Positions 5,927 to 34,603 of a stretch of 64,000 bases of DNA are shown piece by piece. The stretch is from assembly GCA_944376205.1 (NCBI GenBank), contig CALWBV010000003.1:24059-88058 (forward strand). The letters are read 5' to 3'. How positions within the stretch are numbered: the stretch's first letter is position 1; each line of letters starts with the position of its first letter. Under the pieces are notes generated by a model. The model ran no database searches. It was not told where the DNA came from and worked only from the letters and a program-made list of their open reading frames with translations. The DNA comes from an uncultured Christensenellaceae bacterium. GTDB lineage: Bacteria > Bacillota > Clostridia > Christensenellales > UBA3700. The position numbers and the translations under genes were made by a program.

Positions 5927-6025
5927 ATTCGAATTGTAGACAAAAGACAGTAAAATATACAACGCTGTCAATATTCTTGCTAATTTCGCAGATTTTGTGT
6001 AAAATAATATCGAGGTCATACGAAT

Positions 6026-7129
6026 ATGATTATAATTTTCGGCGGGGCTTTCAATCCCGTACACGACGAACATGTCAATATGATAAAATATCTTTTGGAC
6101 AGAAAGGAAGTTGAAAAGGTGGTAGTATTGCCTTCTTTCAATCCTCCGCACAAAAGCTGTCCTACGTCATACTCGCAGCGCAGAGAAATGTTACAATTGG
6201 CGCTACGCGGTATCGACCGAATTGAGATATGCGATTATGAAAACACCGACAATAAAAAGCATTATACGGTAGAAACTCTTCCTTATCTCAAAAATATATA
6301 CAAGGATATTGCGTTTGTCATAGGCGGAGACAGTCTCGAAGCGCTTGACAAATGGAAAAATCCCCAGAAAATAATAAAAATCTGTCCGTTGTACGTGTTT
6401 ACAAGAGGAAAGAGCGAGGGCTTTGACAAAGCGCTTGAATATTGGAGAAGTAAGGGGGCGGATATCGTAGTTTGCGATTATCACCCCGATGACGTGTCGT
6501 CGACGCTGATACGTTACAATATAATGCTGGGCGTCTATGACGATATCAATCCCGACGTGGCGGAATATATCAGAGAAAATAAACTTTACGATTCGTTCAG
6601 AGGTATTCTCGATAAACTCAAAGAATCTCTTATTCCCAAGACATACGAGCATAGTCTGCGCACGGCAAAATATGCTTTGAGACTCAATTACAAGCTGGCG
6701 TTGGGACTTGATTATGACAAAGTTTTTCTTGCGGGAGTATTGCACGACTGCGCAAAGAATATGTGCGCCGAACCTCATGATACGCAATGCGTTCCGAGCG
6801 ACAGTATAGGTTCGCCTGTCGAACATCAGTTTTTAGGAGCGATAGTTGCAAAAAACGGATACGGCATCGAAGATAAAGACGTGCTTAATGCGATAAAGTA
6901 TCACACGACGGGTAAAAAAGAGATGTCTCCGCTTGAGAAATTGATTTTTTGCAGCGATATGCTTGAAGAAAAAAGAGATTTTGAGGGTGTGGAGGAGCTG
7001 CGAAAAAGTATAGAGAAATCCCTTGACGAGGGGTACAGAGATTGCGTATTGCATCAATATGCATATTTGAGTGCAAGAGGCGGCGAAATTTATCCTTTGA
7101 CTTTGCAGGCGGTTGAAGGGGTAAAGTAA
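6026..7129 (+). CDS. nadD: fused nicotinate-nucleotide adenylyltransferase (NadD) and YqeK-type HD phosphohydrolase
   Basis: N-terminal GGAFNPVHDEH nucleotidyltransferase motif. C-terminal HD domain (HSLRTAKYA...GVLHDCAK...KYHTTG), which is a separate yqeK gene in Bacillus. Confidence 0.85.
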   Translation: MIIIFGGAFNPVHDEHVNMIKYLLDRKEVEKVVVLPSFNPPHKSCPTSYSQRREMLQLALRGIDRIEICDYENTDNKKHYTVETLPYLKNIYKDIAFVIGGDSLEALDKWKNPQKIIKICPLYVFTRGKSEGFDKALEYWRSKGADIVVCDYHPDDVSSTLIRYNIMLGVYDDINPDVAEYIRENKLYDSFRGILDKLKESLIPKTYEHSLRTAKYALRLNYKLALGLDYDKVFLAGVLHDCAKNMCAEPHDTQCVPSDSIGSPVEHQFLGAIVAKNGYGIEDKDVLNAIKYHTTGKKEMSPLEKLIFCSDMLEEKRDFEGVEELRKSIEKSLDEGYRDCVLHQYAYLSARGGEIYPLTLQAVEGVK

Positions 7130-7302
7130 ACTTTAATATACAAAAATAAAGATTAAGCGTATTTAATCGTATTCTGACGATATTGACGAATAAGCACTTT
7201 AATATTGCGTATATTTACAAATATATCCGTTTATCGCAAGAACAGACTAATAAATAATATATGTGCAAAAGCGCACAAAGCAATATAAATTAAAGGAGAA
7301 AT

Positions 7303-7671
7303 ATGGAAAAATACCAATTGATTTGCAAACTTCTCGATGAGAAAAAAGCCAGAGATATCACGATTGTGGATATCGAACATCTTACCATAATTGCCGACAA
7401 ATTCGTTATCTGTTCGGCAAGATCGAATACGCAGGTAAAAGCACTTGTGGATATTGTCGACGAGGGAATGAGTAAAGAAGGCTTTGAACCTTTGAGAGTC
7501 GAGGGAAAACAGGAAGGAAGATGGGCGATAATGGATTACGGCGACGTAATAGTCCACATATTCTACGAAGAAACGAGAAAACTTTATTCGCTTGAACAGC
7601 TGTGGTCGGACGGAAGCAATATCACTCATTACGGCACAGAAGAGAGTGTAATAAACGGCGAAAAGGAATAA
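7303..7671 (+). CDS. rsfS: ribosome silencing factor RsfS (iojap family)
   Basis: 122 aa; DITIVDI...ADKFVICSARSNTQVKAL...WAIMDYGDVIVHIF..E.R..Y.LE.LW; AGGAG RBS. Confidence 0.9.
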   Translation: MEKYQLICKLLDEKKARDITIVDIEHLTIIADKFVICSARSNTQVKALVDIVDEGMSKEGFEPLRVEGKQEGRWAIMDYGDVIVHIFYEETRKLYSLEQLWSDGSNITHYGTEESVINGEKE

Positions 7672-7828
7672 TATATCGACCGATATAAAAGACAACGTTT
7701 TGCTGTTTTGAATACTAATATAAGATAAATATTATTTTTTGGAAACTATACCGATGCGTTATGTGTTTTTCAAAAAGCGAAACAATTTTTAATAATATTT
7801 TAAAATTTAAAATACACCAAGATATGCA

Positions 7829-7894: not shown

Positions 7895-9595
7895 TTATTT
7901 TTCTTCATCCATTGCACTAAACAAATCATAATACGTGTTGTATTTGTCGAGTTTTAATCCATCTACAGTTACTTCATTATAATCTTGGCTATCATAATTT
8001 GTTTTTACCGCACTTAAAATAGCATCTATTACTTCTAGATTTGTTTGATCTTTGCCATTGTTATTATATTTAAATGATGTTGTAAATTCTGAACCATCAA
8101 CATTAACAATAACAGCAGAAATTTCATAATCATTTTTGCTGCCTATCATTGCTCTTGCAATGTCATTATTTGAAAGATATACATTATTAACTTCATAAAA
8201 TTCTCTTAAATTAGAATAATCAGTATAAGTCATTAAACTTTCATTACTAATGTCTGAGATGATTTTTTGCAATTCTCCATCAGTCATTTCATTATCATCA
8301 AGATAATCTTTAATATTTTGGACACTTGCAATTTGCAGACAATTAATCGTTTCAACTAATCCATCCACAATTGAATGTCTTACAGAATAAATTTTTATAT
8401 TATTTATTTCCGCATTAAAATTTATTATTACCTTTTTAACTTTAGAGTTGTTTGGCGAAATATTTGTAAAATCTATTTTTGTTAATTGTTGTTCTTCAAA
8501 TGTTTTTACCAAATACTCTTGTACAGATTGTTCAATCAAATTTAAATCGTTAAGTAAAATATCAGAATATTCTTTAGCAATAGTTGATTGATTTACAAGA
8601 GAAGGAATATCACTGCTTGATAGATCAATATTGGCAAATAAATTTTCCATATATTGTTCTATTATTTCTTGTTCAAGTTCCTTTCCATCATCAGCGCCTA
8701 AAATTTCTTCTGCACTTTTTGGCAACTTGCTAACATCTGCGACAATTTCTTCTTTAGTGAACTTTTCAAAAGCGTTTTTATATATTTCTAAACGCTTTAG
8801 CGCTTCTTCTCCATTTACTTTTGCGTTCCAATTTGCAGAAGCTTTAACTAATGAATTAATTTTATTTTTAACATCGTTTTGCGCTTCAGTAATATTTTGA
8901 ACGTAATCTTCTTTAATTACATTTATTTCTTTATCATATGTGTTAATTTGAGAATTAATAGCTGAAGCAATACTCCAAATCCCCCCTACTGTTGCAGCCA
9001 CAGCAACAACTGTCGATAAAGTGATCAGAGTTGCGTTAGTTTTTGGAAAATATAAATATAATGCTTTGTTGAGTAATAAATTCCAAACAGTCAATCCGCT
9101 TTCAAGATCATCTAAACTGCAAAACAATGTCTTTGCTTTTGTTTTTCCTGATTTGAATATAATATCTTGAGTTGTTTTATGAATAAGCTTAAGTAATTGT
9201 TTTTCATTATTTTTATCAAAATATTCTATTTCTAATTCGGCTTGTTTCTTTGATTTTACTTTTGGGGTATTATCTTTGTTAAGTTTACCAGTATTAACCT
9301 TTACTTCTCCATGGCGAATAAAAGTTATTGCCTTGTCAAAATCATCCTTTGACAAACGTGAAATATATTCACCATTTTTCAAATAAATACTATTTTTTAC
9401 AGCATATTCTAAATTGTCTATATTGTCTTCAATAATCTCTTTTGTTTTTTGTAATGTTGACTTAAATGTTTTGCTTTTTATGAGTCCTTCAAGATTTTCT
9501 CTGAGCTTTTTTATAGTAACTAAATACTCTTCGATAACTTTATTTTTTCTTTCCTCTTCTTTATCGTATTTTAACCAACCAAGTTCTTTTGCCAT
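7895..9595 (-). CDS. orphan hypothetical protein, 566 aa, N/K/I/E-rich, one central TM segment followed by a predicted coiled coil
   Basis: Uninterrupted ORF with a strong RBS (AAAAGGAGAG, 4 nt, ATG) and its own terminator. TM segment LITLSTVVAVAATVGGIWSIASAI. Heptad-like stretch NSQINTYDKEINVIKEDYVQNITEAQNDVKNKINSL. Visibly more AT-rich than the flanks. No domain recognised. Confidence 0.75.
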   Translation of the reverse strand: MAKELGWLKYDKEEERKNKVIEEYLVTIKKLRENLEGLIKSKTFKSTLQKTKEIIEDNIDNLEYAVKNSIYLKNGEYISRLSKDDFDKAITFIRHGEVKVNTGKLNKDNTPKVKSKKQAELEIEYFDKNNEKQLLKLIHKTTQDIIFKSGKTKAKTLFCSLDDLESGLTVWNLLLNKALYLYFPKTNATLITLSTVVAVAATVGGIWSIASAINSQINTYDKEINVIKEDYVQNITEAQNDVKNKINSLVKASANWNAKVNGEEALKRLEIYKNAFEKFTKEEIVADVSKLPKSAEEILGADDGKELEQEIIEQYMENLFANIDLSSSDIPSLVNQSTIAKEYSDILLNDLNLIEQSVQEYLVKTFEEQQLTKIDFTNISPNNSKVKKVIINFNAEINNIKIYSVRHSIVDGLVETINCLQIASVQNIKDYLDDNEMTDGELQKIISDISNESLMTYTDYSNLREFYEVNNVYLSNNDIARAMIGSKNDYEISAVIVNVDGSEFTTSFKYNNNGKDQTNLEVIDAILSAVKTNYDSQDYNEVTVDGLKLDKYNTYYDLFSAMDEEK

Positions 9596-9728
9596 AATTC
9601 TCTCCTTTTATGGCTATATTATATTTATTTTAACATAAAGATTTTATTTTGTAAAGTTATTAAAAAGTAATTCGCCGATGTAAAAAAACGTTTTTATGCG
9701 TTAACTTTAGTATAATTTGCCTTATTTC

Positions 9729-9759
9729 AAAAATCGCCCGTATGACGGGATGACGGGCG
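9729..9759 (-). terminator. terminator-like hairpin on the minus strand at the right edge of the AT-rich segment
   Basis: cgcccgt (9735-9741) pairs with acgggcg (9753-9759). The arm is duplicated in tandem (tgacggga tgacgggc). The A5 run at 9729-9733 gives a U-tract on the minus strand. No minus-strand gene lies directly upstream of it. Confidence 0.4.
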
Positions 9760-9868
9760 GAGGTTTATTCTCTTATCAAGCGCAGGAGTCGTCTGGATTG
9801 AATAGCCTGCAATTGCGCCAATGTATAAATTCTTCAAAATCCGACAAAATATTAATCGGAGGTTAATT

Positions 9869-10243
9869 ATGCAGTTTATACAAAACGTCGATTGTGCGCC
9901 GTGCGCATTAATCGAGCAAAACGATGAGAGCGTAAGACAGAATATAATATCCGAACTGGCAAAGAGTGATAAAATAGAGTTTTGCAATATGGCGGTTTGC
10001 GGTTCGAGAGCGATTATCGGCGTAATACCTTATCCTTTATTTTCTAGAAGCGAAAGAGAAGAGCTCGAGAGGGCTATTGCAAAAGAAGCTTATTCGCTGT
10101 ACGATTTTGACGAAGTAGTTATATCTTTCGATACCGATGTTATCTATTGTCTTTCAAAGTCTGACGGGACTGATATGGAAAAGAAAGTTTTTGACGATTT
10201 GTTCGAAAGCGTTAAAAACCGCAGAAGCGTAAGCGTTCAGTGA
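9869..10243 (+). CDS. hypothetical protein, 124 aa (weak resemblance to the YhcN/YlaJ domain pattern; no signal peptide)
   Basis: GGAGG RBS 7 nt before ATG 9869 (track start 9821 rejected). Ordinary local composition. Followed by the terminator at 10358-10406. Confidence 0.55.
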   Translation: MQFIQNVDCAPCALIEQNDESVRQNIISELAKSDKIEFCNMAVCGSRAIIGVIPYPLFSRSEREELERAIAKEAYSLYDFDEVVISFDTDVIYCLSKSDGTDMEKKVFDDLFESVKNRRSVSVQ

Positions 10244-10566: not shown

Positions 10567-11325
10567 TCAGTTATTTTTAGATGTATCAGTATCGGAAATC
10601 TTTGTTTCGGATATGTTGTCTTGTGAAGCGTTTTGAGTATCTTCGGTGTTATTTTTCAAATTCTCGCTATTGTCGTCGATATCTTTTTCTATATTCGAAG
10701 AATCGCTTTTGCGGGGCGATTTAGAGAATTTTACGAGTACACCTTGCAGAGGTTTTGCGATTATCACTGCCATAACGCTTATGATTGCGCATTTTAAGAA
10801 CGTATAAGGCATATTGAATATTGCAAGTACTTCCCAAAGACCATTGGACGAAGGACGGATTTGTTGATACATTCCGATTATCGCCGTCATAGGCAAGAGG
10901 AATTTGTCATACAGAGGATATACTATCAAAGCGTTGAGAACGAGTCCTGCGAAAAATCCGCTTACCACGCTACCGACTGCGAGACCGAGAATAAGCCCTT
11001 TGTAGTTGGGGATTTTTTTGTATATTAGAGAAAAGGGGAGGATCATGCAAAGGCAAACGAAAAAGTCTGCCATATCTCCGATGCCGCCTGTTGCGCCGAA
11101 GCCCTTAAAAATAAGATGAATCAAATCCTTAAAAAGCGCAATTGTAATTCCGCTTAAAGGACCGAGTGCCACGCTGCCGATAAGACAGGGTAACAGTGAG
11201 AAATCAAACTGTATAAACGTGGGCATAAGGGGAACGGGCATTTCCCAAAAATACAGAACGCTTGCCATAGCGGCAAGAATAGCCGTGGTAGCAAGCCACT
11301 TGCTTCTAGAAATTGAATTATTCAT
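10567..11325 (-). CDS. ribU: riboflavin ECF-transporter substrate-specific (S) component with a 55-aa low-complexity C-terminal tail
   Basis: Six hydrophobic helices typical of ECF S components. Sits directly behind an FMN riboswitch. Tail: SKSPRKSDSSNIEKDIDDNSENLKNNTEDTQNASQDNISETKISDTDTSKNN. Confidence 0.8.
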   Translation of the reverse strand: MNNSISRSKWLATTAILAAMASVLYFWEMPVPLMPTFIQFDFSLLPCLIGSVALGPLSGITIALFKDLIHLIFKGFGATGGIGDMADFFVCLCMILPFSLIYKKIPNYKGLILGLAVGSVVSGFFAGLVLNALIVYPLYDKFLLPMTAIIGMYQQIRPSSNGLWEVLAIFNMPYTFLKCAIISVMAVIIAKPLQGVLVKFSKSPRKSDSSNIEKDIDDNSENLKNNTEDTQNASQDNISETKISDTDTSKNN

Positions 11326-11332
11326 AAAAGTA

Positions 11333-11454
11333 TCCTTTTCCTATCCAGACTATACTGTCGGTACAAGAATTTCACTTGTTCGGCGCCGTATAAAAAAATT
11401 TGCGGCGTTTGCGGACTTTACCGCCGGTGAGGAATTTCACCTGCCCTCAAAGAA
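11333..11454 (-). promoter_or_regulatory. FMN riboswitch (RFN element) controlling ribU
   Basis: The minus strand reads ..gagggcaggtgaaattcctcaccggcggtaaagtccgc...gaacaagtgaaattcttgtaccgacagtatagtctggataggaaaagga, matching the RFN core. The 3' strand of P1 (aaagga) is also the ribU Shine-Dalgarno, 8 nt before the ATG. Confidence 0.9.
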
Positions 11455-11470
11455 TTATTTGATTATCGAC

Positions 11471-17418: not shown

Positions 17419-18621
17419 ATGGAAAAGATAAAGATGACTACGCCGATAGTCGAGTTGGACGGCGACGAAATGACGAGATTGATATGGGCATGGATAAAGG
17501 ATATTCTCATCAACCCTTTCGTGGAACTCAAGAGCGAATATTATGACCTCGGACTCGTCAAGAGAGAGGAAACCAAAGACGCTGTTACCGTCGAAGCTGC
17601 CAACGCTATCAAAAAATACGGTGTAGGAGTCAAGTGTGCTACCATTACTCCCAATGCGCAGAGAGTAAAGGAATACAATCTTTCCCAAATGTGGAAAAGC
17701 CCCAACGGTACCGTAAGAGCGGTGCTCGACGGTACGGTATTCAGAGCTCCTATAATGGTCAAGGGTATCACGCCTTATATCCCCACATGGACAAGTCCTA
17801 TCACTATAGCAAGACATGCTTACGGCGATATATATAAGGATGTCGAAGGCTATGTAAAGCAGGGCGGCAAGGCAAAACTCGTACTCGAAGACAGCGACGG
17901 CACCAGAGAAATCGAAGTTTTCGATTTTGCAAAGACGGCAGGTATCGTCATGGGCATGCACAATACCGATAAGAGTATTTCCTCTTTTGCAAGAAGCTGT
18001 TTCAACTATGCACTCGATACGCATCAACCTCTTTGGTTTGCGGCAAAAGACACTATATCCAAGACTTACGATCACAGATTCAAGGATATTTTCAACGAAA
18101 TATACGAAAAAGAATACAAGGATAAGTTCGAAAAAGCGGGAATCGAATATTTCTATACGCTCATCGACGATGCTGTTGCGAGAGTTATACGTTCAAACGG
18201 CGGAATGATATGGGCATGCAAGAATTACGACGGTGACGTTATGAGCGACATGGTTGCTACGGCATTCGGTTCGCTTGCAATGATGACGTCGGTACTCGTA
18301 TCTCCCGACGGTAACTATGAATTCGAAGCCGCTCACGGCACGGTCACGAGACACTATTACAAGTATTTGAAGGGAGAGCAGACTTCCACAAATCCCGTGG
18401 CTACTATATTTGCATGGAGCGGTGCGCTTAAGAAAAGAGGACAACTCGACAATCTCAAGGACCTCGAAGCTTTCGGAGCTAAACTCGAAAAAGCTACTAT
18501 CGATACTATCGAAGAAGGATATATGACGGGCGATCTTGCGGCTATATACAAGGGCGATAAAAAGGTCGTAAAACTCAATACCGAAGATTTTCTTAAAGAA
18601 ATTGCAAAAAGACTTGCTTAA
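17419..18621 (+). CDS. icd: NADP-dependent isocitrate dehydrogenase (about 400 aa, eukaryote-like subfamily II)
   Basis: [20 protein letters not shown] and [10 protein letters not shown] motifs. Start set at ATG 17419 (GGAG RBS) rather than TTG 17407. Confidence 0.9.
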
Positions 18622-18664
18622 TAGAATATAGAATATAAAATAATCACATAAGCAATGAATTACG

Positions 18665-18693
18665 GCGGAGCGCAGAGCGCTCCGTATTTTTTT
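18665..18693 (+). terminator. intrinsic terminator of icd
   Basis: cggagcgc-aga-gcgctccg followed by T7. Confidence 0.85.
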
Positions 18694-19131
18694 GGTATCA
18701 GAAAACCGCTAGAGTGACAAGTGGATGTTTATTGAATTTTCTGACTGTGACGGATTGACTGATATAGGTGATAGAAAAGCGATAAGTCAAATCGTCACGA
18801 AGACAACAGAGGACACTCTGTGTATTTTTCTTTGTATGTTATAAGGTTTACTATAAAATAAAATATTTACGATTAAAATTTCGATATCAGATTATCACGA
18901 GCAAACCGAAAGGGGAATTTTTATGGAAAATTTGCAACTGTTTTTTTACAAAAAACAAATATTGTGCATAAAAAAGCGATTTAATCTGTTTGAGAGGGTT
19001 GTTTTGTATTCCCGAATGTCTTAAAAATTTATCAAAAATCACCGCTCTTTTGCAATAAATCTCTCAATATGACGAAGAGTATGGAAAAAATAAAATAATC
19101 TTGTTTGAGAAAATTTGAAAATCAAACCGTT

Positions 19132-19290
19132 TTATCCATAAAGCTGAACATGTTCAAAATAAATTTAACCTTAAAATTTGCGACATGTGTAACTTTAAAA
19201 AGTGTGGATAATCCAACACTCATGTGGATAACTTTGTGGATAACCCCACTTTTTCCCGTAAAAACACGTATTTTCCCGTATTGTGGATAA
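19132..19290. promoter_or_regulatory. DnaA-box cluster: four perfect and one near-perfect box
   Basis: tgtggataa (the complement of TTATCCACA) at 19203-19211, 19223-19231, 19235-19243 and 19282-19290, all in the same orientation. ttatccata at 19132-19140 in the opposite orientation. An exact 10-mer direct repeat ttttcccgta at 19251-19260 and 19271-19280. Confidence 0.8.
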
Positions 19291-19450
19291 AAAAAATACA
19301 CAAAACCCGTTATGTCTATATAGTGCTGTAAAAGTCCCGAAAAATGCAAAGTTTTATGTCTGAAAAATCCTTGCTTTTATATATTTTATTGTGCTAATAT
19401 ATTAGTGTAATTTTTTTAGAAGATTTTCTAATTTTAAGGAGAGTTTTATT

Positions 19451-19942
19451 ATGCCTAAAGTTGCAGTTATCATGGGCAGCGTAAGCGACCTCGACGTGGT
19501 AAGACCCGCTATCGACATTCTCAAAAAGTTCGGAGTAGAAGTCGAAGCCAGAGTCATCTCCGCTCACCGTACCCCCGACGACGCGCATCAGTTTGCCGTC
19601 AATGCACTCAAAAACAACATCGAAGTTATCATTTGCGCCGCAGGAAAGGCGGCACACCTCGGCGGAGTAATCGCCGCATATACGCCGCTTCCCGTAATCG
19701 GTCTGCCCGTAAAGAGCTCGACCATGGACGGACTTGACAGCTTGCTTTCTATGGTTCAGATGCCCTCGGGTATTCCCGTAGCATGCGTGGCTATCAACGG
19801 CTCTCAAAACGCAGGACTTCTCGCAGTGCAGATGCTGTCTTTGAAGTACCCCCAACTTATTGAAAAAATGCATGACTACAAGAGAAGCCTTGCAGAAAAA
19901 ATTAAAAGCGATGACGAAAAATTACAAAAGGAGTTAAATTGA
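19451..19942 (+). CDS. purE: N5-carboxyaminoimidazole ribonucleotide mutase
   Basis: VAVIMGSVSDL, ISAHRTPD and AGKAAHLGGVIAA motifs; first gene of the pur operon. Confidence 0.95.
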   Translation: MPKVAVIMGSVSDLDVVRPAIDILKKFGVEVEARVISAHRTPDDAHQFAVNALKNNIEVIICAAGKAAHLGGVIAAYTPLPVIGLPVKSSTMDGLDSLLSMVQMPSGIPVACVAINGSQNAGLLAVQMLSLKYPQLIEKMHDYKRSLAEKIKSDDEKLQKELN

Positions 19943-19945
19943 CTT

Positions 19946-20656
19946 ATGGAAAGAACCGTTCAACTTTACGAAGGTAAAGCTAAAAAAGTTTACGCAACAA
20001 CCGATCCCGATATCGTACTTGTATCTTACAAAGACGACGCAACCGCATTCAACGGTCTCAAAAAGGGTACTATCCTCGGAAAGGGCGTGGTAAACAACGT
20101 ATGCAGCAATCACTTGTTCAGACTTTTGGAGAAAAAGGGCGTACCTACTCACTACGTAGAGGAAATCAACGAGAGAGAAACTTACGTCAAGAAAGTCGAG
20201 ATTGTACCTTTGGAGGTAATTATCCGCAACAGAGCGGCAGGTTCTTTCTCGAAGAGATACGGCGTACCCGAGGGTACCGAACTCGCTACGACTATTATCG
20301 AGTTCAGCTATAAAAACGACGATCTCGGCGACCCCCTTATCAACGACTATCATGCACTCGCATTGAGACTTGCTACCCAAGAAGAAATCGACAAAATCAA
20401 GGAACTTGCTTTTAAGGTCAATGACGTACTCAAAGAATACTTTATGGAAATCGGCGTAGAACTTATCGACTTCAAGCTCGAATTCGGCAGATACAAAGGT
20501 CAAATCATCCTTGCCGACGAAATCTCTCCCGATACTTGCCGTTTCTGGGATGCAAAGACAGGTGAGAAACTCGATAAGGACAGATTCAGAAGAGATATGG
20601 ACGACGTAGACAAGGGCTACAGAGAGATGATGAAGAGAATGGGTCTTTCCAAGTAA
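19946..20656 (+). CDS. purC: SAICAR synthetase
   Basis: [10 protein letters not shown] start, 236 aa, [14 protein letters not shown] motif. Confidence 0.95.
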
Positions 20657-20726
20657 TTATCAAACTATCGCAAATTACTAATTTACTAACGGACAAGCTA
20701 GTTCAATTTTAGGAGAATATATCAAT

Positions 20727-21746
20727 ATGGCAATAGATTACAAGTCCGCAGGCGTTGACGTCGAAGCGGGTTACAAAGCAGTCAAGCTGATGAAAGAATA
20801 TGTCAAGAAGACGTACAACGACAGCGTGCTGGGAGATCTCGGCAGTTTTGGCGGATTTTACGCTCTCGGTGACAAGGAAGACAGCGATTGTCTCGTTGCA
20901 GGTACCGACGGCGTGGGTACCAAACTCAAGTATGCATTCGTACTCGACAAGCACGATACGATAGGTATAGACGCAGTTGCTATGTGCGTCAACGATATCG
21001 TATGTCAGGGCGCAAAGCCTTTGCTTTTCCTCGACTACATCGCACAGTCAAAACTCATACCCGAGAGAGTAGCGGATATCGTCAAGGGCGTCAGCGAAGG
21101 TTGCTGTCAGTCCGGCTGCGCACTCATCGGCGGCGAAACGGCTGAAATGCCCGGATTTTATGCAGAAGACGAATACGATATCGCAGGTTTTGCGGTAGGT
21201 ATCGTCAAGAAAAATAAGATAATCAACGGTAAAAATATCAAAGTCGGAGACAGTCTTATCGGTATCGCTTCGAGCGGTATTCACAGCAACGGCTATTCTC
21301 TCGTGAGAAAGTTGTTCGGCGAAGACAAGGTAAGTCTCATGAAGTACAATGAGACGTTGGGTTGCACTCCCGCAGAACTCGTTCTTACTCCTACCAAGAT
21401 ATACGTCAAGACTATTCTTGCGCTCATCGAGAAATACGAAATAAAGGGTATAGCTCACATTACCGGCGGCGGATTTATCGAAAACATTCCCAGAATCATT
21501 CCCAAGGGAATGGGTATCAGAATTGACCGTACGAGTTATCCTTTGCCCAAGATATTCAAGGCATTGCAGGAGATTGCCGGCATCGACGACAGAAAGATGT
21601 GCAATACGTTCAATATGGGTATCGGTATGGTACTTGCCGTCGATCCTTCTATCAAAGACGAAGTCGTAGCCGAACTCAAGAAACTCGGCGAACAAGCTTA
21701 CGTCATCGGTGAAGTTACCGACAAGGACGGAGAAGTCGAACTGTAA
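20727..21746 (+). CDS. purM: AIR synthetase (phosphoribosylformylglycinamidine cyclo-ligase)
   Basis: [24 protein letters not shown] and GGETAEMPG motifs. Confidence 0.95.
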
Positions 21747-21826
21747 CGTCAAAGCTCCAAGGGAGCAAATCGAAGACATAACTATTTTATAGCTATGTCT
21801 TTCGGCATTTTATCGGGAAAAGAAAA

Positions 21827-22525
21827 ATGAAGAATATAGCGATATTCGCTTCGGGCGGCGGCAGCGACATGCAGTCTGTAATTGACGCCGTAGAAGCAAA
21901 AAAAATCAAAGCGAGAATTGTTGCGGCGGTTGCCAACAAAGAGGGAATCCATGCCCTCGAGAGAGCGAAAAAGCACGGTATCGAAGCGAGAGTTTTCACG
22001 CTCGGCGAATACGGCGACAATGAAAAACGGGACAAGGCTATACTTGAATTTCTCAAAGAGAAAAAGGTTGATTTCATAGTATTGGCAGGATATCTTGCAA
22101 TAGTTACGCCCGTACTCGTGGACGCATATAAAGACAGAATTATCAATATACATCCTTCGCTGATTCCCAACCATTGCGGCAAGGGCATGTACGGACTCAA
22201 CGTACACAAATCCGTACTCGAAGCAAAAGACAAGATAAGCGGTTGTACGGTGCATCGTGTCGATTACGGCGCAGATACGGGCAAGATACTTGCACAAAGA
22301 CGAGTCCCCGTATGCGAAGGCGATACTCCCGAGAGTCTTCAGGCAAGAATACTCAATGTCGAGCACAGGCTTTTGCCCGAGGTAGTAGCGCTTGAGGTAA
22401 ACGGCAACAAACGTACAAACCGCAAAAAGAACAGAGCCTACCGCCTTATCAACGGCGATTGGTCTCAAGAGAATCTCAAAAGACCTTCGAGAAAATTGTC
22501 GGACATAAAGGGCATAAAGTCCTGA
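21827..22525 (+). CDS. purN: GAR formyltransferase with a basic C-terminal extension of about 35 aa
   Basis: IAIFASGGGSD, LAGYL, NIHPSLIP and GCTVH motifs. The extra tail NGNKRTNRKKNRAYRLINGDWSQENLKRPSRKLSDIKGIKS is not part of the usual PurN. Confidence 0.9.
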   Translation: MKNIAIFASGGGSDMQSVIDAVEAKKIKARIVAAVANKEGIHALERAKKHGIEARVFTLGEYGDNEKRDKAILEFLKEKKVDFIVLAGYLAIVTPVLVDAYKDRIINIHPSLIPNHCGKGMYGLNVHKSVLEAKDKISGCTVHRVDYGADTGKILAQRRVPVCEGDTPESLQARILNVEHRLLPEVVALEVNGNKRTNRKKNRAYRLINGDWSQENLKRPSRKLSDIKGIKS

Positions 22526-22647
22526 AATAAGATCGAACCGTTAGAGGTTAAAGTCCTTTTAACGACAAGATACGATACGACTCAAATTCAACAATAAAAT
22601 AAAACACTGATTATTAAACAAGCTAACATATACAGGAGAGGATAAAA

Positions 22648-24186
22648 ATGGCAAAAAAAGCACTTATCAGCGTATCCGATAAAACGGGTATAGTAGATTT
22701 TGCAAAGAGACTCACTTCGTTCGGTTATGAAATAATATCCACGGGCGGCACCCTCAAGGTATTGAACGAGGCGGGTATTAAGGCGGTTGACATATCTTCC
22801 GTCACGGGATTTCCCGAGTGTCTCGACGGCAGAGTAAAGACTTTGCACCCCAAGGTACACGCAGGTCTTCTTGCAATGAGAGACAACAAGGAACATATGG
22901 ACTTCCTCAAGAAGATGGACATTGACCCTATCGACATTGTCGTAGTCAACCTCTATCCTTTCAAGGAAACCGTCAAAAAACCCGGTATAGATTTGCAGAC
23001 GGCGATCGAAAACATTGATATCGGCGGACCTACGATGCTCAGAAGTGCGGCAAAGAACTATCAGGACGTAGCTGTTATGGTAGACCCTCAAGACTATGCC
23101 AAGGTACTTGACGAACTTGCCGACGGCGGTATCACCAAAGAGACAAAATTCTATCTCATGTACAAGGTATATCAGCATACTTCCTATTACGATACTTTGA
23201 TTGCCAACTATCTGCGTCAGAAACTCGGTATCGAATTCCCCGAGAAATTCACCATGGCATTCGACAAGGCGCAGGATATGAGATACGGTGAGAATCCTCA
23301 TCAGAAAGCCGTATTCTATAAGGAAGCGTTTGACGTAAAAGGTTCGCTTGCAACGGCAATCCAACTTCACGGCAAAGAACTTTCTTACAACAACATCAAC
23401 GATACAAACGGTGCGCTCGATCTTTTGAGAGAATTCAGCGAACCCACGATAGTAGCAGTAAAACACGCTAACCCTTGCGGTGTTGCTACGGCAAAGACGA
23501 TAAGCGAAGCATTCTTCAAGGCGAATGCGGCAGACCCCACTTCTATCTTCGGCGGAATAATCGCTTCCAACCGTACGATAGACAAAGATACGGCAGAGCA
23601 GATAAGCAAGATTTTCATCGAGATAGTTGTTGCTCCCGACTTTACGGAGGGAGCGCTTGCGATACTCGAGCAAAAGGCTAATATCCGTCTTTTGAAGCTT
23701 CCCGAAATCGCACAGCCTATTCCCGACAACTGTTACGATATGAAGAAAGTTCTCGGCGGTCTTTTGGTGCAGGAATACGACAAAATGGTAGTTGACGAGA
23801 GCAAGTGCAAAGTCGTTACGAAGGCTCAACCCACAAAAGAGCAGTTTGAAGATATGGTTTTCGCCATGAAGGTCGTCAAGCATACCAAGTCCAACGCCAT
23901 TGTTGTGGCAAAGGATAAGACTATTCTCGGCATAGGATGCGGACAGGTCAACAGAATAAGAGCTACGCAGCAGGCAATCGCTCATTCGCTCACCGATACA
24001 AAGGGAGCAGTACTCGCATCTGACGCATTCTTCCCCTTCGACGATTGCGTTGAAGCGGCTCACGAGGGCGGTATTGCCGCTATCATGCAACCGGGCGGAA
24101 GTATCAGAGATCAACTCTCTATCGACGCTTGCGATAAATACGGCATAGCAATGATTTTCAGCGGAGACAGACACTTCAAACACTGA
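22648..24186 (+). CDS. purH: bifunctional AICAR transformylase / IMP cyclohydrolase
   Basis: [32 protein letters not shown] and QPGGSIRD motifs. Confidence 0.95.
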
Positions 24187-24329
24187 TTTAAGGCGGATTT
24201 TGTGACGGAACGGAGTTATTTAGGCAAATAAATACTGTGTGCGCTAATGACTCGTTTTCCGTCAGACAGCCTTAAGAAACAATTCGGCAAATTATCATAC
24301 GGCGCATTGCGCCGCAAGAGGAGATATAT

Positions 24330-25589
24330 ATGAACAGCGTTCTCGTAATAGGCAGTGGCGGCAGAGAGCATACGATTTGTTGGGCACTGTCCAAGAGTAA
24401 AAAAATTGACAAGATATATTGTTTGCCCGGCAACGGCGGCATAAGCGAGATTGCAGAGTGCGTAAACATAGGCGTTATGGACTTTGACAAAATCGTAGAC
24501 TTTGTGGACAGCCACAAGGACATCACTCTCACGGTAGTTGCTCCCGACGACCCTTTGGCGGCAGGACTCGTTGACCGACTCGAAGCAAAGGGACACAGAG
24601 CTTTCGGACCGAGAGCCAATGCGGCTATAATAGAGGGAAGCAAGGCTTTTTCAAAATATCTTATGAAAAAGTACGGAATTCCCACAGCAAATTACGAGGA
24701 GTTCAACGATTACGATAAAGCCGTCGAATATCTTAAGACGGCAAAATATCCTCTCGTAGTCAAAGCCGACGGACTTGCATTGGGCAAGGGCGTAATAATC
24801 TGCAATACCAAAGAAGAGGGTTTGCAGGCGGCTAAAGACATGATGGTTGACGCAAAATTCAAAGATGCGGGCAAGACCGTTATCGTCGAAGAATTTATGG
24901 TAGGTCAGGAAGTTTCCATTCTTTCATTCTGCGACGGCAAGACTATCGTGCCTATGGTCAACGCAAGAGACCACAAGCGTGCTTATGACAACGATCAGGG
25001 ACTCAACACCGGCGGCATGGGAACATTCTCGCCTTCGGCGATTTATACCGACGAGGTTGCCGACGAAGTTCTTCACAAGATTATTCTGCCTACCGTTGAC
25101 GCTATGAACAAAGAGGGCAGAACGTTCAAGGGCGTTTTGTATTTCGGACTCATGCTTACCGACGAGGGTGCAAAGGTCGTAGAGTACAACGCACGTTTCG
25201 GCGATCCCGAAACGCAGGTAGTGCTTCCCAGACTCAAAACCGATCTTTACGACATTTTCAATGCGGTTGTAGACGGAACTCTCGATAAGATTAATATCGA
25301 ATGGAACGATTTGGCTTGCGTTTGCGTAGTTATGGCGAGCGGAGGTTATCCCGAGAGTTACAAAAAGGGAATGGAAATAACTATCGGAGACATAGACAAA
25401 GACGTGCTTATCTTCCATGCCGGCACAAAACTCGAAAACGGCAAGCTCTATACCAACGGCGGACGCGTACTCGGAGTTACGGCTATGGGCAAGAATATTC
25501 ACGAGGCCAGAGAAAAGGCATATAAAAACGTCAAGAAAATCAGTTTTGACGGTGCTTTCTACCGCACGGACATAGGCATCAAGAAATAA
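24330..25589 (+). CDS. purD: GAR synthetase
   Basis: VLVIGSGGREH, PGNGG, an ATP-grasp core and RFGDPETQ. Confidence 0.95.
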   Translation: MNSVLVIGSGGREHTICWALSKSKKIDKIYCLPGNGGISEIAECVNIGVMDFDKIVDFVDSHKDITLTVVAPDDPLAAGLVDRLEAKGHRAFGPRANAAIIEGSKAFSKYLMKKYGIPTANYEEFNDYDKAVEYLKTAKYPLVVKADGLALGKGVIICNTKEEGLQAAKDMMVDAKFKDAGKTVIVEEFMVGQEVSILSFCDGKTIVPMVNARDHKRAYDNDQGLNTGGMGTFSPSAIYTDEVADEVLHKIILPTVDAMNKEGRTFKGVLYFGLMLTDEGAKVVEYNARFGDPETQVVLPRLKTDLYDIFNAVVDGTLDKINIEWNDLACVCVVMASGGYPESYKKGMEITIGDIDKDVLIFHAGTKLENGKLYTNGGRVLGVTAMGKNIHEAREKAYKNVKKISFDGAFYRTDIGIKK

Positions 25590-25693
25590 TATCTTGCCGC
25601 AAACGAACCGTGTGCAACAATCGGATATACAACAAATATATACATCAACAAATACGGATAAATTAATAATAAATTTTATTTAAGGATAACATT

Positions 25694-28600
25694 ATGGTAA
25701 AGAGAATTTTCGTTGAGAAAAAAGAGGGTTACAACGTATCGGCAAAGAAGACTACCGCCGATATAAAGAACGTGCTGGGTATCAACGTCGACGAAGTACG
25801 TGAATTTATCAGATACGACATCGAAGATCTCGATGACGAAGTCTATGCAAAGGCAAAGACTACGATTTTCAGCGAACAGCCCGTCGATAATCTTTATGAG
25901 GAGCTGCCCGATCTTAATGGATACAGACTTCTCGTGGTAGAATATCTTCCCGGACAGTACGACCAGAGAGCGGACAGCGCTATGCAGTGCGTTCAGCTTC
26001 TGTCAATGGCAAAACGCCCCCTTATCAAATGTGCTAAACTCTATGCGATAAAAGGCGCAGACGAAAGCGGTTTCGAAAAGATAAAGAAGTATATCATCAA
26101 CCCTGTCGAGAGCAGAGAGGGAAGCATGGATATTCCCGTAACGCTTGCGCAGGAAGTTCAGCTCAATCTGACAGTACCCGTAATCGAGGGCTTTACGGAT
26201 ATGAGCGACGAGGAGATAGCCGCATATCACAAGAAGGTCGGATTTGCAATGAGCAAAGAGGACTTGGCTTTTGTAAGAGACTATTTCAAGGGCGAAAAGC
26301 GTAATCCTACCGAAAGCGAAATCAAGGTTATCGACACGTATTGGTCGGACCATTGCAGACACACTACTTTTGCTACCGAGCTTACCGACATCAAAATCGA
26401 CAGCAACAACCCTCACGTAGAAAAGGCACTCGGTCTTTACCGTGATTTGTACAAAGAATTCAATTCGAAGAGAGAGGACAAGTATCCTTGTCTTATGGAT
26501 ATTGCCACGATTGCCGTCAAGAAACTCAAAAAAGAGGGCAAACTCGACAATCTCGACGTAAGCGACGAAATCAATGCTTGTTCAGTCGAAGTGGATGTCG
26601 ACAATGACGGAAAGATTGAAAAGTGGCTGATAATGTTCAAAAACGAAACTCACAACCATCCTACCGAAATCGAACCTTTCGGCGGTGCGGCTACGTGTCT
26701 CGGCGGAGCTATCAGAGATCCGTTGTCGGGAAGAACTTACGTATATCAGGCAATGAGAGTTACGGGAAGCGGCGACCCCACGCAGGACATATCCACCACT
26801 CTCAAAGGCAAACTTCCTCAAAGAGTTATCACAAAGACGGCTGCGGCAGGATATTCCAGCTACGGCAACCAGATAGGACTTTCCACCGGTTTGGTAGCCG
26901 AGATGTATCATGAAAATTACCGTGCAAAGCGTCTCGAGACGGGTTACGTAATCGCAGGCGCACCCAAAGAAAACGTCGTAAGAAGAAAACCCGTTGAGGG
27001 CGATATCATCGTACTTTTGGGCGGCGAAACGGGCAGAGACGGTTGCGGGGGCGCAACGGGTTCGTCAAAGGCTCATACCGAAAAATCCGTTGAAGTCTGC
27101 GGAGCAGAAGTACAAAAGGGTAATCCTCCAACGGAGAGAAAGATACAGAGACTTTTCAGAAACAAAGAAGTTGCTCAACTTATCGTAAAGTGTAACGACT
27201 TCGGTGCCGGCGGCGTAAGCGTAGCAATCGGCGAGCTTGCCGACAGTCTCGATATCTATCTTGACAAAGTACCCAAAAAGTACGAGGGATTGAGCGGTAC
27301 CGAACTTGCAATAAGCGAGTCACAGGAAAGAATGGCAGTCGTTCTCGACAAAAACGACGTCGATAAGTTTATAGAATTTGCCGCAAAGGAAAACTTGCAG
27401 GCAACGGCTGTTGCGGAGGTTACCGACAACGGCAGAATGAGAATGTTCTATGCAGGCAACGTAATAGTTGACCTCAAGAGAAAATTCCTCGACACCAACG
27501 GCGTAAAACAAAAACAAAAGGCTCACGTCGAAGACAACGTAAGCGACTACATGGATAAGATCGACGAGAAGACAGAAGAATTCTTTGACAACGGCGACTT
27601 TGACAAAGCCGTACTCAACGAACTCTCTCGTCTCAACGTTTGCTCTACAAAGGGCTTGGGCGAAATGTTCGACGGCACTATCGGCGCTGCAAGCATACTC
27701 ATGCCTTTCGGAGGCAAATATCAGCTTACTCCCGCAATAGCAATGGCAAGCAAGCCTCCTACAAGCGGATATACAGATACGGCTACAGTCTCCACATACG
27801 GTTGTTCGCCTCAACTCATGACGTCTTCTCCTTTTACGGGAGCAATATATTCTATATTGTTGTCTCTCTCCAAGCAAGTTGCTTGCGGTATAGACGTAAA
27901 TACCGTAAGACTTTCTTTGCAGGAGTATTTCAAGCGCCTCAATCAGGACGCTGACAGATGGGGACAGCCTCTTGCCGCACTTCTCGGCGCACTCTATGCG
28001 CAAATAGGATTCGGTGTCGGCGCAATAGGCGGTAAGGACAGTATGAGCGGAACATTCGAACATATCGACGTACCTCCCACACTCATATCCTTTGCTATGG
28101 GTATCGGCAAGGCTTCCAAGATAATTACCAATACTTTCGACTATAAGTCGGGAGCAAAGAATATATGGCACGTAGCTATCCCCAAGGACGAATACGGTAT
28201 TCCCGATTTTGCAAAGACTCTCGAACTTTACAAAGCAATGGCAGAGGAGTGTGCAAACGGAAACGTCAAGGCTGTCAACGTGGTTGAAGAAGGCGGCGTT
28301 GTCGCAAGCGTATTCAAGGCATGTATGGGTAATAAAGAGGGCACGACTTGGAACGAACTTTCCGAAGACATGTTTGCGCCTTCGTTCGGCGATTTTGCAG
28401 TGCTGGCAGACGATATCGGCAAACTCAAAGAGTTTGAACCCCGGCTTGTAGCTGTACTCAACGGTACTCATACGGCGGACATTTGCGGGAAGGAACTCAA
28501 AATGGACAATGCCGCAAAAGCGTTTGAGGGAACTCTCGAGAGCGTATTCCCCACGACGGCACCCGCAAGCGGAGAAGTGCAAAACCTCATATTCTGTGCA

Positions 28601-29431
28601 AGAAAACAACCTCACGTTGAGCGCAACATAGTTAAACCGCAGGTATTTATTCCCGTATTCCCCGGAACAAACTGCGAATACGATACTGCCAGAGCGTTTG
28701 AAAGAGCGGGAGCAAAAGCGAATATTCTCGTAATCAAAAACCGTTCGCCTAAAGATATCGAGGAGAGTGCAAAGGAAATTGTAAAGGCACTTTCGCAAAG
28801 TCAGATTATCGCATTCCCCGGCGGTTTCAGCGGCGGCGACGAGCCTGACGGCAGCGGTAAATTTATAGCTACGACCTTCAAAAATCCCCGCATCGCAGAA
28901 GCGGTTATGGAGCTTCTCTATAAGAGAGACGGTCTCGCACTCGGTATTTGCAACGGTTTCCAGGCACTTATCAAACTCGGCCTCGTACCTTACGGCGATA
29001 TAAGAGAACAAACTCCAGAAGCGCCTACGCTTACATTCAACAACATATCCCGTCACGTTTCTACGATGGTCAACATAAGAATCGCTACCAACAAGTCACC
29101 TTGGCTCAACAAAGTCCATGTTGACGACGTATTCACCGTACCCGTAAGTCACGGTGAGGGAAGATTCGTTGCAAGCAAAGAAGAACTCGACAAGATCATC
29201 AAGAACGGTCAGGTTGCTACCCAGTACGTCGATATGACGAGAAATGCGACAATGCTTTCTCCTTTCAATCCCAACGGAAGTATGTACGCTATCGAAGGCA
29301 TCATCTCTCCCGACGGCAGAGTACTCGGCAAGATGGGTCACAGCGAACGTTTTGACAAGGATCTTTACAAGAACGTCGAGGGTAACTACGATATGAAGCT
29401 GTTTGAAAGCGGAGTAGAATACTTCAAATAA
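25694..29431 (+). CDS. purL: single-chain (large) FGAM synthase
   Basis: 1245 aa. ETHNHPTEIEPFGGAATCLGG synthetase core plus a C-terminal glutaminase domain (GICNGFQAL, SHGEGRF). Confidence 0.95.
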   Translation: MVKRIFVEKKEGYNVSAKKTTADIKNVLGINVDEVREFIRYDIEDLDDEVYAKAKTTIFSEQPVDNLYEELPDLNGYRLLVVEYLPGQYDQRADSAMQCVQLLSMAKRPLIKCAKLYAIKGADESGFEKIKKYIINPVESREGSMDIPVTLAQEVQLNLTVPVIEGFTDMSDEEIAAYHKKVGFAMSKEDLAFVRDYFKGEKRNPTESEIKVIDTYWSDHCRHTTFATELTDIKIDSNNPHVEKALGLYRDLYKEFNSKREDKYPCLMDIATIAVKKLKKEGKLDNLDVSDEINACSVEVDVDNDGKIEKWLIMFKNETHNHPTEIEPFGGAATCLGGAIRDPLSGRTYVYQAMRVTGSGDPTQDISTTLKGKLPQRVITKTAAAGYSSYGNQIGLSTGLVAEMYHENYRAKRLETGYVIAGAPKENVVRRKPVEGDIIVLLGGETGRDGCGGATGSSKAHTEKSVEVCGAEVQKGNPPTERKIQRLFRNKEVAQLIVKCNDFGAGGVSVAIGELADSLDIYLDKVPKKYEGLSGTELAISESQERMAVVLDKNDVDKFIEFAAKENLQATAVAEVTDNGRMRMFYAGNVIVDLKRKFLDTNGVKQKQKAHVEDNVSDYMDKIDEKTEEFFDNGDFDKAVLNELSRLNVCSTKGLGEMFDGTIGAASILMPFGGKYQLTPAIAMASKPPTSGYTDTATVSTYGCSPQLMTSSPFTGAIYSILLSLSKQVACGIDVNTVRLSLQEYFKRLNQDADRWGQPLAALLGALYAQIGFGVGAIGGKDSMSGTFEHIDVPPTLISFAMGIGKASKIITNTFDYKSGAKNIWHVAIPKDEYGIPDFAKTLELYKAMAEECANGNVKAVNVVEEGGVVASVFKACMGNKEGTTWNELSEDMFAPSFGDFAVLADDIGKLKEFEPRLVAVLNGTHTADICGKELKMDNAAKAFEGTLESVFPTTAPASGEVQNLIFCARKQPHVERNIVKPQVFIPVFPGTNCEYDTARAFERAGAKANILVIKNRSPKDIEESAKEIVKALSQSQIIAFPGGFSGGDEPDGSGKFIATTFKNPRIAEAVMELLYKRDGLALGICNGFQALIKLGLVPYGDIREQTPEAPTLTFNNISRHVSTMVNIRIATNKSPWLNKVHVDDVFTVPVSHGEGRFVASKEELDKIIKNGQVATQYVDMTRNATMLSPFNPNGSMYAIEGIISPDGRVLGKMGHSERFDKDLYKNVEGNYDMKLFESGVEYFK

Positions 29432-31646: not shown

Positions 31647-32273
31647 ATGGCAAAACTCACCGACATCACGCTTCAGTCAAAGAATATCGACAGAGTAAAT
31701 CTTTTTGTCGACGGCAAATTCTATGCTGGCGTAAGTCGTATTGCCGTATATAATCATAAACTTACCGTGGGCATGGAGATTGACGAAAAGACTCTCGACA
31801 AGGTTATTTTCGACAGCGACAAGGATAAGGCTTTCGATTATGCTTTGACTTATATCGCACGATACACTCCCACTGCAAAGATACTCACGGGAAAACTCTA
31901 TGACAAAGGGTACGGAAAACTCGTCGTAGACTATACGGTTGACAAGTGCAAGAAGTACGGCTATATCGACGACGGAGAGTATGCTAGGTCATACGTTGCG
32001 CTCAACAGTGCGGTCAAGGGTAAAAACCGTCTTCGTGCCGAACTCAAAGCAAAGGGTATAGAAGATGCGCTTATAGACAAAGCGCTCGAGGGACTGAAAC
32101 AAACGGCTTCATGCAGCGAAGTTGCAAAAAAACACAGCAAAAACCAAGACGTCCACGACCCCAAGTACAGAGCAAAACTCATAAGGTTTTTGCAATACAG
32201 AGGTTATGAATGGGAAGACATAAGTCAGGCGCTTGCATTACTGAAAATCGTTGACGACAGCTTCGGCGATTGA
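31647..32273 (+). CDS. recX: RecA regulator RecX
   Basis: 208 aa of three-helix repeats; ..KLIRFLQYRGYEWEDISQAL.. is a typical RecX repeat. Confidence 0.7.
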   Translation: MAKLTDITLQSKNIDRVNLFVDGKFYAGVSRIAVYNHKLTVGMEIDEKTLDKVIFDSDKDKAFDYALTYIARYTPTAKILTGKLYDKGYGKLVVDYTVDKCKKYGYIDDGEYARSYVALNSAVKGKNRLRAELKAKGIEDALIDKALEGLKQTASCSEVAKKHSKNQDVHDPKYRAKLIRFLQYRGYEWEDISQALALLKIVDDSFGD

Positions 32274-32387
32274 CGTGCATAAGCGATTATGCGGTCAAAG
32301 ATTGATTAAAGACAATAAACCGTTATAAATTCTGACAACACTTATACAATGTTTACTTGATGCGATAAAGAGAGGAGACGTGCACAG

Positions 32388-33866: not shown

Positions 33867-33905
33867 ATCAGAAAAAAAACGATAATAACAATAAGGAGAC
33901 GGACA

Positions 33906-34541: not shown

Positions 34542-34547
34542 GAATGC

Positions 34548-34603
34548 GAGAGCGTAAGAAAGGCTTTTCGCATAAGGTCTAAAGGCAAAATAGGCATATA
34601 TAC
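34548..34603 (-). repeat. repeat A-prime: truncated inverted copy of repeat A
   Basis: gagagcgtaagaaaggcttttcgcataag..gtctaaaggcaaaataggcatatatac aligns to the reverse complement of repeat A with an internal deletion. With A1 it can form a long imperfect hairpin right after the flavoprotein stop. Confidence 0.65.

Follow-up and report, generated by a model that had tools for sequence, protein, structure and literature searches.

A conserved DnaA-box array upstream of the de novo purine operon in an uncultured Christensenellaceae bacterium

We investigated a cluster of DnaA boxes in front of the de novo purine (pur) operon of an uncultured Christensenellaceae bacterium, located in a 64,000-nucleotide stretch of contig CALWBV010000003.1 (assembly GCA_944376205.1) that is referred to in its entirety as the window. 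The cluster lies between icd, the last of three genes assigned on the left flank by Pfam (a Mur-ligase-family gene, ddl, and icd), and purE, the first gene of an operon running to purL, which encodes a product of 1245 aa. The intergenic gap is 829 bp, from the end of icd at 18621 to the ATG of purE at 19451, and not 750 bp as stated in an earlier note on this DNA.

DnaA boxes and other features upstream of purE

A pattern search recovered four exact matches to TGTGGATAA, the complement of the DnaA-box consensus TTATCCACA, at the positions and in the single shared orientation that the earlier note had given (Table 1). These four are the only perfect DnaA boxes in the window. Dinucleotide-preserving shuffles of the window contained 0.47 perfect boxes on average and three at most, and none of 100 shuffles reached four, in keeping with the note's argument that the cluster is not a chance occurrence. 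Four perfect boxes packed into 88 bp amount to the clustering of high-affinity boxes that characterizes a datA-type locus. Boxes 1, 2, and 3 form a box-N11-box-N3-box arrangement at 19203–19243, hereafter the triad, in which the second and third boxes make up a double DnaA box. This is the sole strong double box in the window when a spacer of 2–3 bp and up to three mismatches are allowed; 30 block shuffles yielded none in 27 cases and one in three cases. A same-orientation consensus pair with a 2–3 bp spacer is thus present at 19223–19243, with two further perfect boxes close by. One weak double box, TGTAAATAAcaaTGCGGATAA, was also seen at 42636–42656 (−) between the divergent galT and galK genes, with three mismatches in total, which is near chance expectation.

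Additional, weaker boxes surround the triad. The inverted one-mismatch box noted earlier at 19132 was found again as TTATCCATA, and two weak boxes in the orientation of the array lie farther upstream, in a segment of about 400 bp known only from the window species and three related loci (L001–L003; loci and contigs are given L numbers throughout), where the flanks of a repeat (D5) are identical to those of box 4. The direct repeat ttttcccgta, interleaved with the boxes, exists in two exact copies as the earlier note reported. It is missing in L001–L003, the nearest species, and is polymorphic within the window species (L163, L166), and its candidacy as a second binding site was rejected on these grounds; the repeat is real yet probably non-functional.

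Table 1. Coordinates of features in the icd–purE region and the pur operon (window positions).
Feature	Position	Strand	Details
Terminator-like hairpin 3' of icd	18665..18685	+	icd ends at 18621
Two weak DnaA boxes, same orientation as array	18922..18971	−	TATGGAAAA, 18922–18930; TGTGCATAA, 18963–18971
Inverted one-mismatch box TTATCCATA	19132..19140	+	within repeated motif CCGTTTTATCCATAA (19127–19141)
DnaA box 1, perfect	19203..19211	−	TTATCCACA on − strand; first box of triad; invariant in 34/34 aligned sequences
DnaA boxes 2+3, perfect double DnaA box	19223..19243	−	TGTGGATAActtTGTGGATAA; two TGTGGATAA (19223–19231, 19235–19243) with 3-bp spacer ctt
TTTTCCCGTA direct repeat, exact 10-mer	19251..19280	+	copies at 19251–19260 and 19271–19280
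DnaA box 4, perfect, lineage-variable auxiliary	19282..19290	−	38 bp beyond box 3
Possible second upstream promoter	19297..19324	+	TACACA-16-TATAGT; overlaps conserved motif CCGTTATGTCTATAT (19307–19321)
Conserved motif CCCGAAAAATGCAAA	19336..19350	+	about 20 bp upstream of −35; kept in icd clade
Proximal pur promoter, predicted sigma-A type	19371..19400	+	TTGCTT (19371–19376), 18 nt, extended −10 TGc-TAATAT (19392–19400; hexamer 19395–19400); read from sequence
pur operon (purE, purC, purM, purN, purH, purD, purL)	19451..29431	+	Pfam hits; RBS AAGGAGAG at 19436–19443

The four boxes lie about 117–204 bp upstream of the transcription start expected from the proximal promoter, close to the 120–210 bp upstream of TTGCTT/TAATAT that had been estimated before. 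An equivalent of this promoter, TTGnnn-N16–18-TGnTAnnnT, was present in all 33 related loci considered below, and the hairpin downstream of icd is predicted to separate icd transcription from the pur control region. A possible second promoter begins 6 bp beyond the end of box 4. Better matches to a promoter, TTGACR-17-TATATT, occupy the same place in L007, L009, L011, L012, and L013, and box 4 could act at close range on such an upstream promoter in the clade that has icd in front of the array. The motif CCGTTwTrTCyATAT occurs twice in direct orientation, at 19127–19141 and 19307–19321, about 90 bp to either side of the triad centre, and is conserved across the icd clade (L001–L017); its upstream copy holds the inverted weak box, and its downstream copy forms the spacer and −10 of the possible upstream promoter. 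The motif CCCGAAAAATGCAAA is a candidate site for a second, perhaps purine-specific, regulator. Compared by eye with AWWWCCGAACWWT, which we take to be the PurBox consensus of the Bacillus/Lactococcus type, it showed the CCGAA core only, at 10/13 positions. No PurR gene was found in the window.

The remainder of the gap was examined for other elements. Within 18600–19500, Rfam gave no hit at the gathering threshold or at E ≤ 1, save a chance-level match to an L20 leader (E = 0.83). Two distant triad-less relatives, L040 (3239–3341) and L063 (3730–3830), carry a purine riboswitch in front of purE, and none was found in the five triad-bearing loci tested; as a stand-in for a lost triad the riboswitch makes a weak candidate, being carried by two of the 12 triad-less loci tested. 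Open reading frames inside the gap are 20–75 aa long, and six public contigs of the window species have no gene call between icd and purE. The stretch from 18700 to 19100, about 400 bp of additional non-coding DNA in the window species and L001–L003 that carries the weak boxes at 18922 and 18963, contains several direct repeats of the regulatory region at spacings of 183–455 bp, and may stem from an ancient duplication of part of the control region.

Conservation and distribution of the triad

To examine the prevalence of the array, we collected relatives by a PurE-based scan with one genome per GTDB species, which returned 80 loci. The earlier note had staked its reading on conservation of the boxes upstream of purE in relatives, and this conservation was found: the triad, TGTGGATAA-N11-TGTGGAWAA-N3-TGTGGATAA, is present upstream of purE in 33 of 35 assessable loci (PurE 77–98% identical), with invariant spacing and orientation in surroundings that have diverged. 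The two assessable loci without it are L033 and L035, and L008 was left out of the count, its upstream sequence being too short. Record titles assign the genomes with the triad to Christensenellaceae or Christensenellales. In the loci with PurE identity of at least 77% (2–8.5 kb each), every perfect box falls within about 330 bp upstream of purE and none elsewhere; in relatives below 77% (L036–L080), neither perfect nor double boxes were found near purE. Contigs of the window species from other samples retain all of the boxes.

The alignment resolves the conserved unit sharply. Column information is about 2 bits at exactly three 9-mers and falls to about zero in between and on either side, a footprint such as a 9-bp DnaA box, but not a longer operator, would leave. 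Flanking columns show a weak TTTT 5–9 bp upstream of box 1 and an A-run past box 3, and no other conserved element. Departures from the consensus within the triad are few, the middle box reading TGTGGAAAA in eight species and AGTGGATAA in one, and the third box TGTGGACAA in one. The auxiliary boxes vary more: box 4 is perfect in the window, L001–L003, L007, L012, and L013, reads TGTTGATAA in L006, L009, L010, L011, and L016, and is missing in the others, and TTATCCATA stands 71–82 bp upstream of box 1 in the window, L006, L007, L010, L014, L015, and L017, with TTGTCCATA in L001–L003. Extra near-consensus boxes near the triad favour the orientation of the array, 29 lying in the same and 11 in the opposite direction.

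The array follows the pur genes through changes of neighbourhood. The gene upstream of it is icd (L001–L017, L032), a gdh-like gene, a gene for a protein of 850–1140 aa, or another gene (L021, L025, L031), and is always co-directional, which means that the array serves no divergent gene. A scan of metagenomes for the triad pattern added five further pur loci with GC contents of 0.32–0.57, and the orientation of the array relative to the pur genes is constant in all 33 genomes and six further loci. In L148, from a lineage with a GC content of 0.33, the triad precedes purL by 168 bp and keeps its orientation, and PurL is 48% identical to that of the window. Its sister contig L168 (93 kb) lacks purE–purD and has the gene order purL-recX-yjeF-MFS-dnaX-ybaB-recR of the window; this synteny identifies the element as the same ancestral control region, now before purL, and an independent origin of the purL-linked triad in L148 and L168 was accordingly rejected. 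At 9793–10001 of L168, as also in L148 and L169, triad and promoter stand directly before purL, purE–purD being missing there. Upstream of the triad in L168 are genes for gyrB/parE-like, gyrA/parC-like, flavin reductase, and GH2 glycosidase proteins; L167, which is related to the L168 lineage (PurL 61% identity), has neither the GH2 gene nor the triad. In the icd-less clades (L019–L027, L034; L021/L025/L031), the pur leader is longer, with 53–83 nt between the −10 and the ATG, and contains a GC-rich inverted repeat, such as gggcgggtaccgcccg in L021, that may form an attenuator or a stabilizing hairpin; this repeat is absent from the window species.

The pattern also occurs at other kinds of loci. 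In total, 79 metagenome loci (L081–L159) share the N11/N3 triad pattern, and those that could be placed fall into several groups. In ten loci (L085, L088, L102, L105, L119, L125, L126, L132, L147, and L158) the triad precedes dnaA by about 50 bp, and its orientation with respect to the gene is opposite. In four loci it is divergent from a gene with a DnaB_2 domain (L113, L115, L121, and L152), which in the Pfam-annotated L121 is followed by a gene for a DnaI/IstB-like ATPase. In two loci it lies inside trmE beside yidC (L116 and L134), with dnaA about 4 kb away in L116. Further triads were seen on phage-like contigs that carry terminase genes (L098, L145) and within long arrays of 32-bp period (L082, L086, L129). 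Collectively, this distribution points to a generic, widely deployed high-affinity docking module for DnaA.

Several other features of the window were recorded. An FMN riboswitch at 11329–11458 (−; 98.9 bits) precedes a gene for the S component of an ECF transporter (10567–11325, −), presumably a riboflavin transporter. A low-GC island in the bin 8001–10000 (GC 0.29; GC and AT skew both negative) coincides with an open reading frame of 566 aa at 7895–9595 (−), and no Pfam hit was obtained for this frame or for its neighbours at 5189–6151 (−) and 7231–7695 (−). A large-type SRP RNA is located at 52921–53185 (−).

Proposed function of the array and alternative explanations

In our reading, the element is probably a high-affinity array for DnaA outside the origin and forms part of the region that controls the de novo purine operon. 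DnaA occurs universally and recognizes its box in a manner conserved across bacteria. Binding of DnaA to the array is very likely, given this conserved recognition and boxes that are both perfect and paired. DnaA would sit head-to-tail on the three same-orientation consensus boxes, first on box 1 and, 11 bp further on, on the double box with its 3-bp spacer, and the weaker lineage-specific boxes would lengthen the array. From about 120–200 bp upstream, the DnaA complex would modulate the sigma-A-type pur promoter, probably through a helix-face-dependent contact or a DNA bend, and purine supply would thus be tied to how much replication initiator is present and to which nucleotide it carries. 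The earlier note had read the boxes as a cluster outside the origin, as a means by which DnaA controls purine synthesis, or as both; conservation, linkage to pur genes, and the precedent of Escherichia coli purH all support this proposal, and from them we infer both the binding and the effect on transcription.

The spacing between array and promoter bears on the mechanism. Distances between box 3 and the −10 group into five discrete classes (125–128, 149–151, 159–162, 168–171, and 183 nt), whose centres fit best to a period of 11.25 bp (R = 0.86; P about 0.05 with the period scanned over 10–11.6 bp, and 0.01–0.02 at a fixed 11.0–11.3 bp), which is close to the helical repeat inferred from looping experiments in vivo. 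This suggests helical phasing with the promoter and favours a face-dependent interaction over a mere sink. A positive, activating effect on the pur promoter is slightly favoured, since the core promoter is free of overlapping boxes in 30 of 33 species. Beyond this, DnaA on the helically phased three-box array might exert the main transcriptional control over de novo purine synthesis in Christensenellales, in place of PurR or a riboswitch, a proposal that we make tentatively and hold to be doubtful; the nucleotide state of the bound DnaA (ATP or ADP) might in turn feed back on purine synthesis.

Several observations weigh against the view that the array regulates the pur operon. The phasing statistic is suggestive and no proof, the classes being few and not phylogenetically independent, and the boxes stand so far from the core promoter (−117 to −204) that simple occlusion would not work. 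Two close relatives (L033, L035) and L167 have lost the array, which is therefore dispensable. The downstream dnaX–recR neighbourhood has perhaps always been kept, so that linkage to the pur genes and linkage to a chromosomal place are not fully separable. The E. coli purH precedent is itself one of binding and not of measured regulation. Finally, purA, which lies just to the left of the window (L170, 8697–9986), has no DnaA boxes upstream; it gives no sign of a wider purine regulon, and within this stretch the array is specific to the purE–purL operon. A wider regulon was rejected on this ground, together with the lack of a second strong double box in the 64 kb.

The main alternative is that the locus serves purely to titrate or inactivate DnaA, like the Bacillus subtilis clusters or E. 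coli datA, buffering free DnaA for the timing of initiation, with the adjacency to pur being incidental. Perfect, close, same-orientation boxes should indeed hold both nucleotide forms of DnaA, the array is distant from the core promoter, and the triad module recurs at replication-related places (upstream of dnaA and beside DnaB_2 or DnaI-like neighbours) and in phage-like contigs. Chromosomal position may also fit: recX, dnaX (37830–39395), and recR are present in the window (within 31647–40329), 12–20 kb downstream of the box cluster, with ybaB between dnaX and recR called only in L167 and L168. The genes dnaX, ybaB, and recR, here 18–20 kb downstream, are origin-proximal in many Firmicutes, and the locus may thus be in an origin-proximal part of the chromosome. 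The array is, moreover, kept in L168 despite the loss of purE–purD. Against incidental adjacency stand the constant orientation of the array relative to the pur genes, the pur promoter that always follows directly, and the apparently phased distances; three or four strong boxes are also few for a sink, and the array has been lost in some close relatives (L033, L035, and L167). Titration alone is therefore unlikely to be the explanation. It does not exclude regulation, as the B. subtilis clusters also control transcription in a DnaA-dependent manner, and the array must sequester some DnaA in any case; titration can coexist with regulation and may be a selected function too. Alternatively, the match of the TGTGGATAA repeats to the DnaA box could be a coincidence, and they could instead serve as operator for a different, purine-specific transcription factor, or for Spo0A, which recognizes a site similar to the DnaA box. 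The conserved CCGTTwTrTCyATAT pair and CCCGAAAAATGCAAA probably do point to further binders, and a PurR or riboswitch signal was not found at the locus, but the conserved unit is the exact 9-bp DnaA consensus three times over, with the 3-bp-spaced pair that DnaA requires, an identical triad stands upstream of dnaA in other bacteria, and DnaA, universal and conserved in its recognition, would bind anyway. This alternative is very improbable.

An origin of replication located away from dnaA, or the remnant of one, would explain why perfect boxes cluster in a long, AT-rich stretch between genes and why the tandem boxes resemble the box pair of a basal unwinding system (BUS). The chromosomal context speaks otherwise, as the earlier note had anticipated in holding that the cluster is most likely not an origin, that no dnaA is nearby, and that gene orientation does not flip. 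Of the 32 bins of 2 kb, 30 have a positive GC skew, the exceptions being the low-GC island at 8–10 kb and a zero bin at 36–38 kb; cumulative skew climbs almost monotonically, dipping only at that island, the skew remains positive for a further 10 kb to the left, and the genes on either side of the cluster are co-directional. A search for the DnaA signature and a tblastn search that used DnaA of B. subtilis and of E. coli as queries (best E-value 1.2) found no dnaA in the window, nor is there one on public contigs of the same species that reach 10 kb past each window end (pheA, aro genes, tyrA, a P-type ATPase gene, and purA on the left; tig, clpP, clpX, lon, and mraZ on the right), so that −29 to +55 kb around the cluster was covered overall. 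In the alignment, the flanks of the triad do not look conserved as an unwinding element or as an array of DnaA-trios, and the element stays before the pur genes while its upstream neighbours change. We rejected an origin on the near-monotonic skew, the co-directional genes, and the lack of dnaA in the window or 10 kb beyond its ends, and give this explanation hardly any credence. The same low credence applies to a DARS-like DnaA-reactivating sequence that would promote the release of ADP. Its appeal lies in three boxes within a compact core, as in DARS1 and DARS2; the DARS core, however, consists of three boxes of which I and II are opposed, 5 bp apart, in head-to-head contact, whereas the triad is head-to-tail and its sole inverted box, a weak one, is 62 bp away. 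A DARS-like core was rejected on this difference in box orientation.

DnaA is known as a transcription factor, with a regulon that varies among the few model species in which it has been mapped. The array described here is a strongly conserved non-origin DnaA array at a nucleotide-supply operon, in an order and a phylum where nothing similar has been described; a literature search for DnaA together with the pur operon in Firmicutes found no paper. It suggests that replication status and purine supply are wired together in Christensenellales. The link between DnaA and purines has so far rested on the purH peaks of E. coli chromatin immunoprecipitation sequencing (ChIP-seq), to which this locus adds independent evolutionary evidence, namely an array of fixed geometry retained before a purine operon through changes of neighbours and base composition in gut Clostridia that are abundant and for the most part uncultured. 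With its three perfect boxes, simple promoter, and spacings in discrete classes, it is also a natural test case for the action of DnaA at a distance and for the coupling of replication to nucleotide supply. The recurrence of the triad module at dnaA promoters, beside helicase-loader-like genes, and in phage-like contigs should be useful for predicting DnaA targets in genomes that are inaccessible to experiment.

Comparison with known DnaA-binding loci

The array shares features with several classes of known DnaA-binding loci. Like datA, DARS1, and DARS2, it is a compact cluster of high-affinity DnaA boxes outside oriC, differing from DARS in that all three triad boxes share one orientation. 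Its tandem boxes no more than 3 bp apart recall the BUS of oriC, and other bacteria carry the N11/N3 triad about 50 bp in front of dnaA; here, by contrast, no conserved DnaA-trio or AT-rich unwinding element is apparent in the alignment beside the triad, and there is neither a skew switch nor a dnaA gene. With the control of nrdAB and nrdDG by DnaA in E. coli, and with the earlier reported repression of the gua operon (guaBA), whose guaB site was yet unbound in ChIP-seq, it shares a logic in which the initiator controls the supply of DNA precursors. The boxes of nrdA are within the promoter region, where they help or exclude RNA polymerase (PMC8203912), whereas the array described here is more than 100 bp upstream.

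Closer in phylogeny are the clusters of B. subtilis, which are likewise intergenic multi-box groups outside oriC in a Firmicute. DnaA binds strongly to them and acts there as a transcription factor (PMC8203912; PMC4447404), and its direct regulon includes sda, ywlC, yydA, vpr, ywcI, and trmE (reviewed in PMC8203912; binding mapped in PMC4447404). The eight sets of directly DnaA-regulated B. subtilis genes in the review include no pur gene (PMC8203912). The B. subtilis clusters have more boxes, and more degenerate ones, in contrast to the fixed three-box geometry that is conserved clade-wide here.

The closest parallel is E. coli purH. In ChIP-seq, E. coli DnaA bound 16 regions, nearly all with a double DnaA box whose spacer is 2–3 bp, and mutation of either box or a wider spacer abolished binding. 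The newly found site TTACGCACAgagTTATCCACA upstream of purH was among the strongest non-origin peaks, and a second ChIP-seq study lists purH too. Boxes 2 and 3 have the same arrangement as the double boxes of purH, polA, and DARS2. The two systems differ in that the E. coli site has two boxes (7/9 and 9/9 matches), against three or four perfect boxes plus auxiliary ones here; in the orientation of the boxes relative to the gene, which is opposite, the pair in MG1655 reading TTATCCACA towards purH; and in phylum, first gene (purE here), and promoter type. DnaA is bound in vivo at the E. coli site, whereas for the Christensenellaceae array we infer binding from sequence. In both, a non-origin DnaA site lies upstream of a de novo purine operon and contains a box pair with a 3-bp spacer, and the distances are nearly the same, the MG1655 pair ending 209 nt before the purH ATG and box 3 ending 207 nt before the purE ATG. 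If DnaA were indeed the main regulator of purine synthesis in Christensenellales, then, together with E. coli purH, the coupling of DnaA to purines would have evolved repeatedly and would represent a general principle linking the cell cycle to metabolism.

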